From: a virus
Length of the DNA stretch: 38,999 bases
Direction: 5' to 3' (one strand)
Virus genome (UHGV): UHGV-1350822
Position 1 is the first letter of the stretch; every line of letters starts with the position of its first letter. The notes beneath the pieces were generated by a model. That model was given only the letters and a program-made list of their open reading frames with translations, was not told the origin of the DNA and did no database searches. The translations under genes and the position numbers were made by a program. Shown one piece after another: positions 1,421-26,123 of this stretch.

Positions 1421-3723
1421 TGGCTAAAGCATGGAAAGATGTTATCGCCTCTCCACAGTATCAGGCGTTAGCACCAGAACAAAAAGCGCAGGCTCAGGAG
1501 CAATACTTCAATGAAGTCGTGGCACCGCAAGCCGGAGAAAATGCAGAGCAGGCTAAGCAAGCTTTCTATGATGCCTATCCATTGCCTTCAATGCAGACAG
1601 AACAGCAGGAAGTAGGGCAATCTCCTGATACCATTCAGCAAGACAAATCACTTATGCAGCGTGCAGGAGAATGGCTAACAGGTGGGCAAAGCGTAGGTCA
1701 AATTGCCGAGCAGGCGGTAAGAGGATTTGTAAATATTCCTTTTGACGTTCTTCAGGGGGGGGCGAGTCTCATTAATGCCGCATCTCAGAGTTTTGATGGA
1801 CCAAAGATTCTTGATGAAGTATATAGACCAGTTAACCGGCCAACGGATCCGTATGCGCAAGCTGGAGAGTCAATAGGCGGTTATCTTGTTCCTGGAGCAG
1901 GAGTAGCTGGAAACATGGTCATTGGTTCTCTCGCTGACGCGGCGAATCAACGGGGTGATTTTGCCGAAAATGCCGCTATTAATGCCGGACTTAACATTGC
2001 TACGCATGGCCTGATAAATGGCGTTACCCGTGGTGTTCGTGGTGCATCAAATATAATTAGTGGCAATAAAACATCTGCACAGAGAGCGACCACTGCGCCA
2101 ACAGAAACATCACCATTCTCCGGTGATGCCGCTGCAGCAACAAATCCTGCGGTTCATGCCGCAGAGGCAAGAGTAGCACAAGGTGTACCAATGACGCCTG
2201 CGACGAGGAACCCAGAGGAAGTCGTTCGCACAGTAGCAGCACAAAAAAGGCCAAATCTCGCTTCATCGCTTGATGAACTAGATATCAATCCTCAGGCTGA
2301 AGTTCTGGAGTCTGCTGAAAGGCTTAATGTTGATTCATTACTCCCTTCACACTTTTCCGGGAACGAGCAATACAAGGCAGTTGAGCAAGCAATCAAGTCC
2401 CGTGCGGGTTCTGCTCTACAGGTGCAGGAAAATGAAGCAATCAGGCAGCTAGCACAGGGCGCGGGGGAGATAATTGATCGCGTTTCCGGTGCAAAAGATG
2501 CTCTTGGTATGAGCGACAAGTTTATTGATACGGTCAATGGAAGAATGTCTGCGCTGATGAAACGAAGCGACCAGCTTTATCGCAATGTTGAAAAGGCGAT
2601 GCCTGCAGGTGCAAAAATTGATGCACCATCAACAAGGTCAATGCTCAAACAGGTGGCAGAAGATCTTGGCGGGATGAAAAACCTTGACCCTATTGAAAAG
2701 AGAGTCTTTCGGGCAGTTAATCCAGGCAAGAACGGCGCATTAACTTATGCAAATCTCAATAAGCAACGACGACTTGTTGGTGATGCACTTCATAAGAATT
2801 CTGGACCATATAAAGATGCTGATCGCGCTGCTTTATCGAGGCTTTACGGTTCGCTCGCCGATGATCAAAAGGCGGCGCTGTCAGAGACAAATGCATTACG
2901 TGATTTTGAAGTTGCTCAGAGGCTTGTTCAGATGCGAAAAAGCATGGAAGAGCAAATGATTAATCTAACTGGCAGAACGCTGAACGGTGATGTTTCTCGC
3001 AAAGCAACTACAGCACTACAGGCAATGTCGAAAGGCGATGCCAAAGGATTTCGTGAATTGATGCAAAACACGCCGTCCAGGAAGCTAAGAACCGAGCTAC
3101 TGGGAACAGGTCTTCGGGATATGCTTTCGAACGGAAAACGTGGCGCTGATTTTAATCCTGCAGGGTTTGCTGACTGGTATCAAAACATGTTAGCAAACGG
3201 GCAGATGCGCAATCTTGCCCGACATTTACCAAAAGAGACTATGTCAGGTCTGAACGATGTATATAAGGTCGCAAAGGCTATCAAAGATGCAAAATCTTAC
3301 GAGATAACTACAGGAAGACTAAACGAGTTCGTCAAACGGTTTAATCGCGTCACTGCGGCAAATGAATTTGTTGCTAACCATGCCCAACGCATTGGCACTG
3401 CGGTTGGTTCAACTGTGTCAGGACCGTTCAGTGCAGTAGGTGCTGTTGCTGGGTCAGAAATTGGGGCAAAAGTCGCCAGCAAAATCAGGGCGATGGGCGG
3501 CGCTGAATCAATTGAATCTGCAGAAAAGCTAATTAGCTCACCAGAATTCCAGAAAGCAGCAAGGCTGGCAGTAAAACAAGCACCAGAAAGCATCGTTGAT
3601 ACAACTGTAAGACGCTCTTCTGCTTGGCGCTCGTTTTACAACTCACTTCCAGAATCAGATAAGAAAACCATATCAAGGCTAGGCATCATGTACTGGATGA
3701 ACAGTGATGATAACCAGAAGTAA
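1420..3723 (+). CDS. gp16-like DNA ejection protein
   Basis: 767-aa ORF, start overlaps upstream stop (TAATG); synteny with P22 gene 16. Confidence 0.7.
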
Positions 3724-3740: not shown

Positions 3741-4034
3741 TTAGCTGCTGTCTTTTTTATATAGCTCCTTGAGCGTATCAAAGACAATTTTCTTAACCAT
3801 ATCAGATTGTTGTTCTGCCATACGCTCTGCATCGTCAATGTAAACAGATGCAGAGCTTTGTTTAGCCAATGATTCTTCAATCGCTGCAATTATCTCTGAG
3901 TTCAGCGACCTGTTATTCATCTTCGCACGCTGCTTAATTTTCGCGTGGAGTTCATGCGGAAGTCTCAAGTGAAACTGCGCCTCGTCGTATTTGCTGTACA
4001 TCCTTGATGCCTCACCAGTTGGGTGGAATGGCAT
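3741..4034 (-). CDS. mnt: Mnt-like ribbon-helix-helix repressor (Arc/MetJ family)
   Basis: C-terminal region ...NDAERMAEQQSDMVKKIVFDTLKELYKK matches P22 Mnt as recalled; N-terminal RHH segment; alternative start ATG at 4001. Confidence 0.8.
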   Translation of the reverse strand: MPFHPTGEASRMYSKYDEAQFHLRLPHELHAKIKQRAKMNNRSLNSEIIAAIEESLAKQSSASVYIDDAERMAEQQSDMVKKIVFDTLKELYKKDSS

Positions 4035-6353: not shown

Positions 6354-7508
6354 TTACTTTTTAATGAATCTCCACTCAAAATTCTTAAAACAGATACAGG
6401 AAATAACGCTACACAGAGATGCAATAAAGGCTATCAAAATTGTGTAATTCACAGTAGACATGCTCGATAGGTTATAGAAATTATTTATTGTTCTCATTAC
6501 TATAGCCATGATAGGCAAATGCAGCAAATAAAGACTATAACTTGCCTCACCTAAATAAACTAATGATTTTATTTTAAATATTTTTGGTTTAGTTATAAGT
6601 ACCATTATAAATAGTAATGAAATGCATGCAAATCTGATTCGTCCATAGCTGTCTGCGGAAGAGCAGAAGATAACAAAAATAGCTATGAAAGAAATGAATG
6701 AGAATATCCAATATTTATCATCAATGTTAACATAAGATTTATTGAATATATATGCACCTAAGGCGCCAACTATAAAATATGGCCACAAAACAAATTCTGT
6801 CATAAAGTCTCTTGCCGCAAGTAACATTACTGCGGAAATGGCAAACATACCATATCTCTTGCTTGCGATGGCAATCGATAATAGAGGGAAAATTAAATAA
6901 AACCTCCATTCATACGGTAGAGTCCATATCACCGCATTTAATCCTGATGCGTTAAAAGAGCCAATGAAGATTTCTGTGCCCAAAAATCCAAACCCAAAAA
7001 AATTTAGGAAGCTTGAAAAATCAACAAAGTTAAGCCTTGCTGAACTGCCGGATAATATAATAGCTAAAATTGCCACCAAAAGCGCAGTAAGCATATATAG
7101 AGGAACGAGTCTTTTTATCCGAGCAACATAAAATTTATTCCAGTCAAATGTATTATTTCCTTTTATTAATTTATCAAAGAACAAAAATCCTGTAATGCAA
7201 AAGAAAATCTGTACACCGAAGCTACCCATATTCCCTGTGATGGAGTATTTTGTGAAGTCTATAAATATGGGCTGAACTCCATTGGTAATAATTGTATGAG
7301 CGCCGTGATTAATAAGAACGCTGAACGCAGCTATCCCACGCAATCCGTCTATAAAGAAATACCTGTTACTTGCAAAGTTGATGTGAGAAAAATAGTTATA
7401 TCGTGTCAATAGTGTAATACATAACACAACGGCTAAAAGAGACAAAAAATATAAATAAAGACTTTGCGCCTCAAAGATCATAATGCACACCATGAGATAA
7501 AATTTCAA
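6354..7508 (-). CDS. oac: Acyltransferase-3 family integral membrane protein, likely O-antigen acetyltransferase (lysogenic conversion)
   Basis: About 10 predicted TM helices; N-terminal R...H motif (RGIAAFSVLINH) and FFCITGFLFF motif typical of acyltransferase 3; very AT-rich; sits between tailspike and int as oac does in Sf6. ORF-track start is TTG at 7508; ATG at 7493 is more likely. Confidence 0.8.
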   Translation of the reverse strand: MKFYLMVCIMIFEAQSLYLYFLSLLAVVLCITLLTRYNYFSHINFASNRYFFIDGLRGIAAFSVLINHGAHTIITNGVQPIFIDFTKYSITGNMGSFGVQIFFCITGFLFFDKLIKGNNTFDWNKFYVARIKRLVPLYMLTALLVAILAIILSGSSARLNFVDFSSFLNFFGFGFLGTEIFIGSFNASGLNAVIWTLPYEWRFYLIFPLLSIAIASKRYGMFAISAVMLLAARDFMTEFVLWPYFIVGALGAYIFNKSYVNIDDKYWIFSFISFIAIFVIFCSSADSYGRIRFACISLLFIMVLITKPKIFKIKSLVYLGEASYSLYLLHLPIMAIVMRTINNFYNLSSMSTVNYTILIAFIASLCSVISCICFKNFEWRFIKK

Positions 7509-7726: not shown

Positions 7727-8884
7727 TCACTCCACCTTTTCATCAATCCAGTCAGCCCACCACTGCATCATTTCTCTGCGCTTATCTAGATACTGAGCAT
7801 GGTTGTAAATCCCGCGCACAGATCCGCCGTTGGCATGTGCAAGTTGCACTTCAATAGCGTCAGCAGGCCATTCGTGCTCGTTCATAATCGTGCTGAATTC
7901 ATGCCTGAATCCGTGACCGCTTTCCAGACCCTCATAGCCGATTTGTTTGATCACAAGCAATACCGCGTTCTCGCAGATTGGCTTTTTCTTATCGTTGCGC
8001 CCGGCAAAAACAAACTCTGATACTGGTTTAGTGATTGAGCTTAGCGTAGTGAGAAGTTCAACCACCTGGTCTGACATCGGGACAACATGAATTTTGCGTC
8101 CCTTCATCACACTGGCGTCGATGGTGATAATCCTGTTTTCAAAATCGACGTTCTTCCATTGCATGGAACGAAGCTCTTTCGTTCTTAGGGCTGTGTAGCG
8201 TAAAACTTTGGTCGCAATGAGCGATACGATACTTCCTGAAAATGTTGCAAGTGCTTTGTTGAATGCCGGGATCTGGTCGGCAGGTAAAAACGGGAAGTTC
8301 TTCTTGCGGTATCCCTTCATGGCGTCAGCAAGGTCAGGTGCCGGGTTATATTTAGCCCTACCAGTGACAATAGCGTAACGAAAAACCTCGCCGCATCTTC
8401 TGCGGGCTTTGTTGGCTCGCTCCATTGCACCGCGATCTTCAAATCTGCGGATTACTTCCAGCAGTTGCATCGGCTCAATATCCTGAATCTCAAGACCGCC
8501 GATGATGGGTAAAATGTCGTCATCAAACATTTTGGCAAGTTCAGTTGCATAGCCTACTGACCAGACTTGCTTCTTGTGCTCGTACCATTCCTTGTAAATC
8601 GCACTAAATGAATTGTTGCTAGACGAAGACTTTTTCGCCTTTACCGGATCGATGCCAACCGAGATGTCTTTCCTCGCAGTCCATGCCTTATCCCTTGCTT
8701 CCTGCAAAGTCATAAGCGGATATTTTCCGACAGTCAGGATTTTCTCCTTACCGTCAATCTTGTAGCGAAGCTGCCATACCTTTTTCCCTGATACAGGGAC
8801 ATAAAGGTACAGGCCATTACCATCGAGTAGGCGGTATGGTTTTTCTTTCGGCTTTGCTGCTTCAATCTGCTTAACGGTGAGCAT
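7727..8884 (-). CDS. int: Tyrosine integrase, P4/IntS-type (DUF4102 arm-binding N-domain plus catalytic domain)
   Basis: MLTVKQIEAAKPKEKPYRLLDGNGLYLYV N-domain; catalytic residues in HGFRHEF...LAH...Y; ORF track extends to GTG 8920 but ATG 8884 matches the usual IntS-type N-terminus. Confidence 0.9.
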   Translation of the reverse strand: MLTVKQIEAAKPKEKPYRLLDGNGLYLYVPVSGKKVWQLRYKIDGKEKILTVGKYPLMTLQEARDKAWTARKDISVGIDPVKAKKSSSSNNSFSAIYKEWYEHKKQVWSVGYATELAKMFDDDILPIIGGLEIQDIEPMQLLEVIRRFEDRGAMERANKARRRCGEVFRYAIVTGRAKYNPAPDLADAMKGYRKKNFPFLPADQIPAFNKALATFSGSIVSLIATKVLRYTALRTKELRSMQWKNVDFENRIITIDASVMKGRKIHVVPMSDQVVELLTTLSSITKPVSEFVFAGRNDKKKPICENAVLLVIKQIGYEGLESGHGFRHEFSTIMNEHEWPADAIEVQLAHANGGSVRGIYNHAQYLDKRREMMQWWADWIDEKVE

Positions 8885-9045
8885 GGGTAAAAATCCGGTG
8901 GGTAAAATTATTTTATCCACTTTTTACCCGTCATGGAGTGCGGCTGTCAACGATCTGACGCGAACCATGACGAACCGTGAATATACGTAAGGCTTGATAT
9001 TCAGGGGATTTTGCGGACTGGTACGGATGGGAGCGAACTGATAAA

Positions 9046-14720: not shown

Positions 14721-14909
14721 TTATTCGTCATGCATTTCAGGTAATTCTTCGTATTCGACGCCCCATACGAGTTTACACCAACTAACTCGCTCATATCTTT
14801 TACAGAAATCAGACCACATAACTTGTGTTCCATCATGGTTTGTTATTACTTCTGTAATATCACCAACACTAACAAAACTGGTATTAGAAGCAGTTATTTT
14901 TACTTTCAT
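14721..14909 (-). CDS. Hypothetical protein
   Basis: 62-aa ORF. Confidence 0.4.
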   Translation of the reverse strand: MKVKITASNTSFVSVGDITEVITNHDGTQVMWSDFCKRYERVSWCKLVWGVEYEELPEMHDE

Positions 14910-15205
14910 TATTCATCACCTATAGCTTTTTTGATAGCTTCGAGAGCCTTATTAACAGCTCCATACCATTCTGGATATGTTGTCGTTGTTCTATTTTTGG
15001 CTTGCTTAAGTAATAACTGAAGTGCTTCGAGAAGGTCAGGTGCTGCCGCTATTAGATTGGCATCTTCAATGCATTGAACTTCCTCACAGATTGCAATATA
15101 CGAACGCCAGCCTGCGCCATTTTCAAGTGAGTCTGCCTGGATGATTTTAATCTCATCGCCATCCATCATTATTTCCCACTTACCTTTAGTACCTTTGAAT
15201 TCCAT
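14909..15205 (-). CDS. Hypothetical protein
   Basis: GAGGTG RBS before ATG 15205 (98 aa); the ORF track extends to 15271. Confidence 0.5.
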   Translation of the reverse strand: MEFKGTKGKWEIMMDGDEIKIIQADSLENGAGWRSYIAICEEVQCIEDANLIAAAPDLLEALQLLLKQAKNRTTTTYPEWYGAVNKALEAIKKAIGDE

Positions 15206-15260
15206 ATTCACCTCTATGCTTGCTGCCAAAACAATGAACCATCCGGAAATTCCAGATAGT

Positions 15261-15488
15261 TCATAATTCACTCTTCAATACTTCCAACTTACTAATCGCC
15301 GATAGATATCCGCGCTGATAGGGCATCATCATTCCTTCGAGCTTGCCACTTCTTAACTCCTCCCTGAGCAATTGTATTGCTTGATCAATAACCTCTGCCT
15401 TAGCGTCCTTTATGGCTTGCTTGCGGGGCTTTGCTTTCTGCTTTGGCAGATTTCTCAAGCATGATGGAATGTATGTCTGATTCACCAC
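15261..15488 (-). CDS. Hypothetical small basic protein immediately downstream of the N-like gene
   Basis: 75-aa ORF; GTG start directly after the N stop. Confidence 0.4.
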   Translation of the reverse strand: MVNQTYIPSCLRNLPKQKAKPRKQAIKDAKAEVIDQAIQLLREELRSGKLEGMMMPYQRGYLSAISKLEVLKSEL

Positions 15489-15761
15489 TTACCTCGCTGT
15501 CAGTTGTTTTGATTTCCGGTAGCCTGCCGCGTAAATGGCTACGTTTGGCAGGCAAATACTTCCACTGCATTCATCTGCCTTCTTGCAGCGAAGGCTTCCG
15601 AGTGATGCTGCTTTATCTGCTCTGACGCAACCAGAGAGCTTTAGCGCAATTTTTCGTGCCAGTCGCTGCTCTTGCATTGCCTGTTCACGTTGAGCCTGTC
15701 TGCGTGCTCTGCGGCGATTTCTGGCGTTATCGTCAGCCAGATATGTAATGACTACTGTCAT
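15489..15761 (-). CDS. N: N-like transcription antiterminator (P22 gp24 type, arginine-rich motif)
   Basis: N-terminal ARM NARNRRRARRQAQREQ; C-terminus VAIYAAGYRKSKQLTAR resembles P22 gp24 ...ALYAAGHRKSKQITAR; strong GGAGGT RBS. Confidence 0.85.
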   Translation of the reverse strand: MTVVITYLADDNARNRRRARRQAQREQAMQEQRLARKIALKLSGCVRADKAASLGSLRCKKADECSGSICLPNVAIYAAGYRKSKQLTAR

Positions 15762-15948: not shown

Positions 15949-16037
15949 TGGCTAAAGAATACTGTAGGTATTTTATTGTGTAAATACCCAAGGTATTTAT
16001 TTTTGATGAAATAATGATAAACAAATGAATACAAAGG
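15949..16037 (-). promoter_or_regulatory. OL/PL region: three dyad operators (AATAC-N5-GTATT) with a candidate PL promoter
   Basis: Operator-like dyads at 15951-15966, 15977-15993 and 16021-16037; minus-strand -35 TTTACA and -10 TATTCT with 17-bp spacing. Confidence 0.6.
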
Positions 16038-16128
16038 ATATTTATTTTTTCGCTGTCTGCTTGTTCAGTGATTTTTATGCGGGATATGTGAAGTGGATCC
16101 CGATAGCTATTGCTGTCGGGATTATGGG

Positions 16129-16497
16129 TTAGTCAGCGAAGGTTAAGACGAGAATTACCTTAATGATGTCTGCTACAACAGACACGGCCATAGATAAACC
16201 AAAGACGATCCAAGCCACAGTGATGTCTTCACTACCATCGTATAGAGTTCCGTAATCACTGGTGTAAGGCGTAAATGTCGCGCCTTGATACAATAGGTAT
16301 AAGCTTGATCCATAGAGGATAAATGCAGATATCCCTTGTATTGCTATGATCACAAGAATCATGAAACGAGCTGATCTATGCGCCCAAGCCTGGCTTATTT
16401 TTTCTGATAGAGATTTCGCAATAAAAGCATGCGCTAAGCCGTAAATTGTCGAGATTGCCAACATCCCAAAAAAGCTTGCTATAGCGGTTCCAACCAT
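16129..16497 (-). CDS. Small integral membrane protein (about 4 TM) co-transcribed downstream of cI; candidate superinfection exclusion or abortive-infection determinant
   Basis: Hydrophobic segments; occupies the rexAB position between cI and PL; AAGGGG RBS before ATG 16497 (ORF track gives TTG at 16518). Confidence 0.55.
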   Translation of the reverse strand: MVGTAIASFFGMLAISTIYGLAHAFIAKSLSEKISQAWAHRSARFMILVIIAIQGISAFILYGSSLYLLYQGATFTPYTSDYGTLYDGSEDITVAWIVFGLSMAVSVVADIIKVILVLTFAD

Positions 16498-16514
16498 AAT
16501 CGCCCCTTGCGTGA

Positions 16515-17231
16515 TCAAACCAGCCTTAGTTTTGTCTCAATTGCAACGCCTATAATCTTGCAGTTTCCATTGATTGGCACGAGAGGCCATGCAGGATTAA
16601 GTCCCTTGAGGTATTTATTTCCGCCGTCGATTATCAGCTTCTTGAATGTTGCTTCGTTAGAGTCAGAAAGTTTTGCTATGACCAAGCTGCCGTTGATCGC
16701 CTCCCTTCCGGTATCGAAAAGAACGAATGTTCCCTCTGGAATGCTTAACCCAACCGGTGCCGTCATTGAATCACCTTCCACTTTAAGCCAAAACGCATTA
16801 CCTTGAATATGCGCGTCAGACTCAAGCCAAACATCTATGTCTTTAATGGTGTATGGTTCGCATGCTTCACACCACGAGCCAGCCTGGATACTGCTTAACA
16901 CCGGATACCTCTTTCCTGCTCTGTATTCCCCTGCATACCTTACGTTGGCATCGCTCTTAAGGCTTTCTGCCTGTTCTGCAACCTTGGCAGCAATTGACTG
17001 GCTAAAATCAGCAATTGAGACTTGCAACAATCGTGCAAAACCAGATGCAACCTCAACGTTTAGCGCGTTTCTGCCATTAAGATAATGCCCTACCGCTCCT
17101 TGGGTGATACCCAGTTCATCAGCGATTGAGTATTGGGTTATTCCCAATTCTTTCTTTTTTGACTCATACAAAGCCTTAAGCCGCTTAGCGTCTTCGAGCT
17201 GTTCTGTCGTCAGTGATTTTTTATTTTCCAT
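16515..17231 (-). CDS. cI: CI-type prophage repressor (HTH_XRE N-domain plus S24 LexA-like autopeptidase C-domain)
   Basis: HTH QYSIADELGITQGAVGHYLNG; Ala-Gly cleavage site (SIQAGSW); Ser/Lys dyad (GDSM...FKKL). Confidence 0.9.
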   Translation of the reverse strand: MENKKSLTTEQLEDAKRLKALYESKKKELGITQYSIADELGITQGAVGHYLNGRNALNVEVASGFARLLQVSIADFSQSIAAKVAEQAESLKSDANVRYAGEYRAGKRYPVLSSIQAGSWCEACEPYTIKDIDVWLESDAHIQGNAFWLKVEGDSMTAPVGLSIPEGTFVLFDTGREAINGSLVIAKLSDSNEATFKKLIIDGGNKYLKGLNPAWPLVPINGNCKIIGVAIETKLRLV

Positions 17232-17266
17232 AGCTTAATTCTAATAGCTAAGGTACTTAAACTAAA

Positions 17267-17309: not shown

Positions 17310-17337
17310 TGTTCATGGTTAATAACGGAGAGTGCAT

Positions 17338-17532
17338 ATGATTCGAATGACACTTGCCGATTACGCCAAAATCCATGGACAGGCTAAAGCAGCCAGTGAC
17401 TTTGGTGTAATCCAGTGCGCTATCAGCAAGGCCATTCTGGCAGGCCGTAACATCATGGTTACGGTAAAGCCTGATGGCAGTGTGATTGGAGAGGAAGTTC
17501 GTCCTTTCCCAAGCAACAAGAAAAACAAATAG
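17338..17532 (+). CDS. cro: Cro repressor (lambda Cro fold)
   Basis: [29 protein letters not shown]...V....[15 protein letters not shown] closely resembles lambda Cro; GGAG RBS, ATG at 17338 (ORF track starts at GTG 17332). Confidence 0.9.
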
Positions 17533-17640: not shown

Positions 17641-17919
17641 ATGCAACTTACAAGTACTCGCAAGAAAGCGAATGCAATTACAAGCAACATCCTGAATCGA
17701 ATTGCTGTACGTGGTCAGCGAAAGGTGGCCGACGCATTAGGGATCAATGAATCGCAAATTTCGCGATGGAAAGACAGCTTTATCCCAAAGATGGCCATGC
17801 TTCTGGCTGTACTGGAGTGGGGTGTTGAAGACGAGGAGTTGGCGGAACTGGCTAAGAAAGTAGCCAGAATGCTGACAAAAGAAAAAGCCCCGAAGAACGG
17901 CGAATTCTTCGAGGCCTGA
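17641..17919 (+). CDS. cII: CII transcriptional activator
   Basis: SQISRWK...IPKMAMLLAVLEWGV matches the lambda CII core (SQISRWKRDWIPKFSMLLAVLEWGV). Confidence 0.9.
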   Translation: MQLTSTRKKANAITSNILNRIAVRGQRKVADALGINESQISRWKDSFIPKMAMLLAVLEWGVEDEELAELAKKVARMLTKEKAPKNGEFFEA

Positions 17920-25799: not shown

Positions 25800-26123
25800 A
25801 TGAAGATGCCAGAAAAACATGACCTGTTAGCCGCCATTCTCGCGGCAAAGGAACAAGGCATCGGGGCAATCCTTGCGTTTGCAATGGCGTACCTTCGCGG
25901 CAGATATAATGGCGGTGCGTTTACAAAAACAGTAATCGACGCAACGATGTGCGCCATTATCGCCTGGTTCATTCGTGACCTTCTCGACTTCGCCGGACTA
26001 AGTAGCAATCTCGCTTATATAACGAGCGTGTTTATCGGCTACATCGGTACTGACTCGATTGGTTCGCTTATCAAACGCTTCGCTGCTAAAAAAGCCGGAG
26101 TAGAAGATGGTGGAAATCAATAA
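25800..26123 (+). CDS. S: Class I holin S (lambda type, dual-start S107/S105)
   Basis: [34 protein letters not shown]... essentially identical to lambda S; dual Met starts at codons 1 and 3. Confidence 0.95.

Follow-up and report, generated by a model that had tools for sequence, protein, structure and literature searches.

hkaS, a small gene behind the phage repressor cI: a predicted inner-membrane protein and tentative candidate for superinfection exclusion

The hkaS gene behind cI

The window analyzed here, the 38,999-nucleotide viral genome UHGV-1350822, is a complete P22-like (Lederbergvirus) temperate phage of ~39 kb with a lambda-style immunity region. We examined a small gene in this region, hkaS, which lies directly behind the repressor gene cI and encodes a predicted inner-membrane protein that we tentatively consider a candidate for excluding superinfecting phages. 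An earlier note on this DNA had flagged the gene as an open reading frame (ORF) at 16129..16518 on the minus (repressor) strand, right behind a cI-type repressor and ahead of OL/PL, a placement that our analysis bears out. The encoded protein is that of hkaS in coliphage HK620 (AAK28867), with 99% amino acid identity and the same length, and belongs to PHROG 6534. The gene is already catalogued, and so is not new, having been listed as “unknown” in HK620 since 2001; all hkaS records examined carry the label “unknown” or “hypothetical”, the HK620 product being “unknown”.

The repressor gene cI (16515..17231, minus strand) encodes 238 amino acids with HTH_3 and Peptidase_S24 domains, as identified by Pfam and PHROG matches, and its product is 99.6–100% identical to cI of HK620, mEpX2, and HZ41. 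Next on the same strand, hkaS occupies 16129..16497 (369 bp, 122 amino acids, stop codon at 16129-16131), as assigned from its ORF, its match to PHROG 6534, and its identity to HK620 hkaS. It is followed by the PL/OL block (~15956-16043 overall), in which a promoter scan located PL (TTTACA-17-TATTCT, 15984..15956, minus strand), conserved in all homologous loci, and onto which the HK620 annotation maps OL1 (15957-15973) and OL2 (15982-15998). The N gene lies beyond this block (15489..15761, minus strand). On the other side of cI, OR is situated between cI and cro (17332-17532, plus strand), followed by cII (17641-17919, plus strand). The flanking genes N, cro, and cII, each identified by Pfam/PHROG matches, are arranged as in lambda. 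The flagged ORF had also been described as the only gene between cI and PL, and we found no other conserved ORF in 15985-16515. A 35-residue hydrophobic ORF on the plus strand (16025-16132; MNTKDIYFFAVCLFSDFYAGYVKWIPIAIAVGIMG) runs toward hkaS and extends into its stop codon. We considered this ORF as a convergent partner gene and rejected it because the underlying DNA is not conserved between lineages; it is probably spurious.

The start codon of hkaS required revision. The ORF as flagged began at a TTG at 16518, overlapping the cI stop codon, and we replace this start with an ATG at 16497, which yields the 122-residue product. Direct reading of the sequence reveals a ribosome-binding site (RBS), AAGGGG (16503..16508, minus strand), 5 nucleotides (nt) upstream of the ATG, within the 17-nt gap that follows the cI stop codon (16517-16515) and that holds nothing else. 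Using hmmscan, we found that PHROG 6534 aligns residues 8-129 of the long ORF to positions 1-122 of its 122 (E=2.9e-79). The three divergent lineages examined keep both the ATG and the RBS (AAGGA/AAGGGG) but lack the upstream in-frame TTG, and the HK620 record has the same ATG start. We are thus almost certain that translation begins at the ATG at 16497.

Sequence comparisons indicate that hkaS is a real gene under purifying selection and not a chance ORF. Against an 83%-identical homolog from a Hafnia-annotated cluster, the ratio of nonsynonymous to synonymous substitution rates (dN/dS) is 0.14 at a dS of 0.67, compared with 0.03 for the neighboring cI in the same pair; in all comparisons, the dN of hkaS is 4–5 times that of cI. 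Homologs are exactly 122 amino acids long down to 52% identity, the gene is intact in 80 of 80 IMG/VR loci, and the RBS is conserved. The view that hkaS is a chance or decaying ORF without function could draw on its GC content of 42.0%, somewhat below the phage average of 46.9%, and on the fact that no library assigned it to a family, domain, or fold. This view is effectively refuted by the data on selection and conservation, and a confident AlphaFold2 model (mean predicted local distance difference test score (pLDDT) 92, predicted template modeling score (pTM) 0.79), obtained from only seven input sequences, also speaks against it. We regard it as extremely improbable.

Co-transcription with cI, as previously suggested, is the natural reading of the locus, given the 17–20-nt gap, the gene’s own RBS, a hairpin after the stop codon, and the lack of a promoter-like site, none being detected by the promoter scan inside or just upstream of hkaS on the minus strand. 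We infer a cI-hkaS operon that would be read from PRM in lysogens and from PRE during establishment. A putative PRM -10 element, TAGAAT (17238..17243, minus strand), was located 6 nt before the cI ATG by sequence reading and lambda analogy. This element is weak, falling below the threshold of the promoter scan, and the analogy suggests that the maintenance transcript is leaderless, as in lambda. The HK620 record annotates PRE and sets the terminator of the cI transcript after hkaS, so that its annotators interpreted the locus as we do; a PRE-like TTGC-N6-TTGT motif is visible in the window.

A stem-loop, AUCCCGA(CAGCAAUAGCUA)UCGGGAU (16097..16122, minus strand), starts 7 nt after the hkaS stop codon. 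The RNA fold of 15990-16140 (minus strand) has an energy of −25.5 kcal/mol (z = −3.7), and other lineages have hairpin-forming sequences, different in sequence, at the same place in the alignment as judged by eye only. The immunity transcript probably has its 3′ end or terminator at this hairpin. Because it lacks a U-tract, the hairpin may serve RNA processing or stability, or form an end with the help of Rho, and not be a classic intrinsic terminator. An operator-like palindrome (16027..16043; AAATATCCTTTGTATTC on the minus strand) marks the left edge of the slot that separates cI from the left operators. Its sequence agrees with the operator consensus seen in OL1, OL2, and OR1-3, and the five HK620-type immunity regions that we aligned all retain it almost in full. 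In the HK620 annotation, this stretch is named “tIMM”, and OL3 is assigned to the counterpart of 16004-16020 (TTATCATTATTTCATCA), a sequence unlike the other operators. Judged by its sequence, the palindrome may be the real third left operator, with OL3 mis-annotated in HK620.

The predicted HkaS protein

HkaS had been described as a small membrane protein with four transmembrane (TM) helices. Our topology check gives three hydrophobic segments by hydropathy (residues 1-27, 43-70, and 92-122) instead of four. The AlphaFold2 model contains three long helices (2-29, 41-73, and 89-121; 28–33 residues each), together with a short helix (31-38) and a small beta-hairpin (~78-86). Both results are consistent with the description of HkaS as a hydrophobic membrane protein, and we infer that it resides in the inner membrane with three TM helices. 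Across all five lineages compared, the net charge is +3 to +5 for loop 1 and −1 to −4 for loop 2. By the positive-inside rule, the predicted topology places the N-terminus and loop 2 in the periplasm, and loop 1 and the C-terminus in the cytoplasm. We also considered a cleavable signal peptide (“AHA”, residues 22-24) and rejected it, as the motif varies among homologs, lacks a basic n-region before it, and is directly followed by basic residues.

Conservation is unevenly distributed along the protein. Loop 1, a basic segment of 17 residues, is the most conserved loop (9 of 17 positions invariant), whereas loop 2, an acidic, Tyr/Gly-rich hairpin of 22 residues, is the least conserved part of HkaS (4 of 22 invariant). 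The most conserved motifs, KIxQxWxHRxARF and the C-terminal DIxKxILVLTFAD, both lie on the predicted cytoplasmic side, and the C-terminus itself is hydrophobic (...KVILVLTFAD). Three polar residues predicted to lie within the membrane are invariant, namely Q54 in TM2 and D110 and K113 in TM3; W38, H40, and R44 are also conserved.

Homology searches returned a small family. A word-indexed search of 5.8 billion proteins yielded 12 clusters, all at least 52% identical (E. coli, Salmonella, the Hafnia-annotated cluster, and metagenomes), and an exhaustive hidden Markov model (HMM) search of 1.84 billion 50%-identity representatives yielded one full-length cluster and a 44-residue fragment. Pfam gave only a sub-threshold match to TssN (E=0.043), the sole match in PHROGs was the unannotated family 6534, and the NCBIfam profiles, a PDB sequence search, and a scan of GTDB species-representative genomes gave nothing for HkaS. 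The dissimilarity to RexB that had been remarked on earlier holds (BLASTP E=3.7; hhalign probability 0.7%), and the HMM and structure searches revealed no homology to any characterized protein. At the sequence level HkaS is an orphan, its sole family being the unannotated PHROG 6534.

These properties bear on the idea, raised in the earlier note, of a membrane-depolarizing toxin. HkaS would then be an abortive-infection effector that oligomerizes into a gated pore, RexB- or holin-like, and depolarizes or permeabilizes the membrane on infection, the cell dying before progeny are released. Its slot and strand are the same as those of rexAB, its predicted architecture is shared with class I holins (three TM helices, N-out/C-in, ~105–120 amino acids), and the invariant D110, K113, and Q54 within the bilayer could line or gate a pore. 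However, no RexA-like sensor or other partner gene is present in the slot, the soluble loops of just 17 and 22 residues leave little room for a sensor, and a constitutive pore former expressed from the strongest lysogenic promoter would need tight gating. HkaS also ends in ILVLTFAD, lacking the charged C-terminal tail typical of holins, resembles neither RexB nor the putative holin of the window, and has no PADLOC match. We consider a pore of this kind quite unlikely.

Linkage to the immunity module and contents of the slot

The 2.3-kb immunity region is 99.0–99.8% identical, over at least 93% of its length, to those of HK620, HK630, mEpX2, HZ41, phi296, and phi367, and 98.4–99.0% identical to those of HK140, HF4s, vB_EcoP-611R6, and two Stx2c phages; all of these phages encode the same protein. 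In HF4s (MT833387.1, 28106-28464), the hkaS match falls into two pieces at 91% identity, while the other 15 phages give a single piece, and the HF4s gene may be a frameshifted or divergent allele. The exact HkaS sequence occurs on at least 1000 public contigs, every one naming it “hypothetical protein”. Among complete E. coli genomes, 146 of 5426 (~2.7%) carry hkaS, in all cases on the chromosome, and the gene resides in commensal, Shiga toxin-producing E. coli (STEC), and Salmonella prophages, including Stx-converting ones.

The position behind cI is constant. In IMG/VR, hkaS follows cI with a gap of 17–19 nt in 79 of 79 loci with upstream sequence. For divergent homologs (52–83% identity), all 11 loci returned have the gene after a cI with HTH_3 and S24 domains, and in seven divergent loci that were measured, cI belongs to the same family (81–95% identical) and the gap is ~17–20 nt. 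The operators and PL downstream of hkaS are conserved in homologous loci, and the N gene beyond PL is often unrelated in divergent ones (19–38% identity). The hkaS-carrying records in the phage database coincide exactly with the 16 that have a cI of at least 99% identity, and the module travels across P22-like podoviruses, lambda-like siphoviruses, and Stx phages. Neither the divergent-homolog loci nor the IMG/VR loci contained hkaS outside this prophage slot. The simplest explanation of this linkage is that a gene between cI and OL is inseparable from an immunity specificity without breaking it.

Such strict co-inheritance with one cI/OL/OR specificity could point to a function in the phage’s own life cycle, for example modulation of FtsH/HflKC that stabilizes CII, damping of spontaneous induction, or an anti-holin activity against premature lysis. 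Expression from PRE, which is annotated in HK620, would coincide with the lysis-lysogeny decision, the cytoplasmic loop is conserved, and the HK620 record notes a shortened cIII. The cI-OL position, however, fully explains the co-inheritance; closely related cI families (58–71% identity) and P22 work without hkaS, and evolution several-fold faster than that of cI is unusual for a core regulatory partner. A role of this type appears very unlikely.

The contents of the slot differ among phages. It is occupied by rexAB in lambda and is empty in P22, mEp213, and Serratia phage OS31. Erwinia phage 49 carries there a 200-residue soluble protein with sub-threshold tetratricopeptide repeat (TPR) matches (2530-3132 of the locus), and Cronobacter phage ENT39118 a possible 120-residue ORF. 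The imm434-type modules of Sf6 (gene 38; 2108-2512 of the locus) and Huey (2109-2513) hold a 134-residue protein with a signal-peptide-like N-terminus, which the Huey record labels PagP and for which Pfam gives no match. The proteins of Erwinia phage 49 and Sf6/Huey are uncharacterized candidates for lysogen-expressed functions. The interval between cI and N has been described as a mosaic hotspot, where lambda has rexAB and Salmonella prophage BTP1 has bstA (PMC8585504). Given that related and sibling modules hold other contents in the slot, or none, hkaS has the character of accessory cargo and not of core machinery. The expectation that genes at this locus typically mediate exclusion or abortive infection stands insofar as rexAB and bstA are known there; sibling modules nevertheless carry unrelated cargo, and position alone is no proof.

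This variety is relevant to lysogenic conversion, by which HkaS would contribute to host fitness in a manner unrelated to phages, through envelope physiology such as transport, stress, or tolerance to colicins, bile, or antimicrobial peptides. The slot proteins of Sf6/Huey (134 residues) and Erwinia phage 49 (200 residues) have no known link to defense, the conserved cytoplasmic and intramembrane faces of HkaS are as expected for a conserved host partner, and the occurrence of hkaS in commensal, STEC, and Salmonella prophages would also fit. Yet its taxonomic and sequence range is very limited (a single 50%-identity cluster among 1.84 billion proteins), and hkaS was never seen outside this slot, whereas broadly useful fitness genes tend to spread. 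HkaS also has no transporter- or enzyme-like features. We therefore regard a conversion function as unlikely.

Beyond the immunity region, the identity to HK620 and HK630 ends exactly at the end of N, their alignments beginning at 15489. This position is a sharp mosaic junction with uncharacterized early-left genes on its left (to ~14900); the genes at 15261-15488 and 14909-15271 have no counterpart in HK620 hkaQ/hkaP and no Pfam or PADLOC match. The position of sieA in P22, between the gene-16 homolog and the tailspike gene, here holds an Arc/Mnt-type repressor (3741-4034, minus strand). A membrane acyltransferase gene of the Acyl_transf_3 family sits between the tailspike and integrase genes (this observation covers 6354-7508 and 7727-8920, both on the minus strand) and is likely an O-antigen-modifying lysogenic-conversion gene.

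A possible role in phage exclusion and comparison with known systems

We hypothesize that hkaS protects the lysogen against superinfecting phages, specifically by blocking their entry. We hold this view tentatively, with less than even confidence; for a phage-exclusion role of any kind, we consider the case evenly balanced. According to this proposal, cI and hkaS would be transcribed from PRM in lysogens and from PRE in establishment, HkaS would be translated from its own RBS 17 nt after the cI stop codon, and the transcript would end at the hairpin before OL. Trapped between cI and the left operators, hkaS would be inherited with the HK620-type immunity module whatever the virion. In the inner membrane, HkaS would interfere with genome entry of the superinfecting phage, as do P22 SieA, T4 Imm, and HK97 gp15, single-protein membrane exclusion factors that look like small stand-alone membrane proteins. 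Membrane effectors of abortive infection such as RexB, by comparison, need a partner. Because HkaS would act alone and has no domain big enough to sense infection, we consider a RexB-like channel less likely than an entry block. The fast-changing periplasmic hairpin, set against the conserved cytoplasmic loop, would fit a surface engaged in an arms race with the proteins of incoming phages. A search of this phage for homologs of sieA, sieB, hkaP/hkaQ, and rexA/rexB (RexA by tblastn against the whole window) revealed no further known gene for exclusion after adsorption, and the only other candidate protective function is the O-antigen-type acyltransferase.

Several observations weigh against the proposed entry block. 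Our literature search found no published study or phenotype for hkaS function. PADLOC-DB 2.0 returned no family at E<=10 for HkaS, the library dating from 2023 and newer defense systems lying outside its coverage. Profile comparisons with lambda RexB, P22 SieA, SieB, GtrA, and the putative holin of the window gave hhalign probabilities of 0.2–1.4%, and fold searches with the pLDDT-92 model, which we judged uninformative for a three-helix protein, retrieved only generic helical bundles and no channel, holin, or exclusion protein. The absolute linkage to cI is most simply explained by geometry and by itself carries no functional information. Moreover, hkaS follows the immunity module and not the virion or ejection genes, being present in P22-like, lambda-like, and Stx phages; sieA, by contrast, adjoins the genes of its target ejection proteins. 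This speaks against a blocker adapted to a single ejection apparatus. Weak constraint could by itself account for the fast evolution of the periplasmic loop, the most conserved parts of HkaS face the cytoplasm and would suit a host or cytoplasmic partner equally well, and the invariant D110, K113, and Q54 would also suit a gated pore.

A broader version of the exclusion hypothesis is possible but doubtful in our view. In this version, HkaS would be the first member of a family, new in both sequence and fold, of stand-alone, repressor-operon inner-membrane immunity proteins that act against heterotypic phages independently of the virion, either by closing a common DNA-entry route or as a sensor-less switch doing alone the job of RexA and RexB together. 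The interval between cI and PL would be read from one of the most active prophage promoters, and defense genes lie there in lambda (rexAB) and BTP1 (bstA). If hkaS excludes phages, it would represent a new, very small single-gene membrane defense, and a new family within a known kind, the prophage membrane exclusion proteins. Such a defense would be relevant to phage-therapy host range in both E. coli and Salmonella, as well as to the way in which Stx prophages protect their hosts. If its role is not exclusion, the “rex slot” would also carry non-defense cargo.

Compared with known membrane proteins of phages, HkaS is unlike the GtrA-type flippases, with an hhalign probability of 1.4% against P22 GtrA, no Pfam match, and a different genetic context (gtrB/gtrC near attP). 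Class I holins (lambda S, P22 gp13) are of similar size and, like HkaS, have three TM helices with a predicted N-out/C-in orientation, but HkaS lacks their charged C-terminal tail and is encoded in a lysogenic operon, not in a late lysis cassette next to an endolysin. It has no similarity to the product of the ORF at 25800-26123 of the window, taken as the holin by position and length, with no family search. Lambda RexB occupies the same slot and strand, after cI and before OL on the immunity transcript, and is a small polytopic inner-membrane protein. It has four TM helices, the textbook number, compared with the three predicted for HkaS. The two proteins share no homology, and HkaS has no RexA partner, as hkaS starts 17 nt after cI with nothing between. 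The promoter scan gave no evidence at hkaS of a counterpart to the internal lambda promoter pLIT. HkaS resembles RexB only in gene position.

P22 SieA is a proven blocker of DNA injection, located in the inner membrane with three predicted TM helices and a conserved cytoplasmic motif, FxRYPxEAxxFNK (PMC10883804). HkaS resembles it as a predicted small, stand-alone inner-membrane protein with three TM helices that would be expressed from the prophage. The two differ in that they share no homology (hhalign probability 0.3%), the aligned HkaS sequences lack the FxRYPxEAxxFNK motif, sieA is flanked by gene 16 and the tailspike gene (gene 9) and has its own promoter whereas hkaS lies in the immunity region, and HkaS also occurs in virion types that are not P22-like. 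PADLOC gave no match of any kind for HkaS, its coverage of BstA being unchecked. BstA of Salmonella prophage BTP1 is encoded directly downstream of the repressor, presumably from a shared promoter (PMC8585504). The genetic architecture of hkaS is the same, and HkaS differs from BstA as a small membrane protein.

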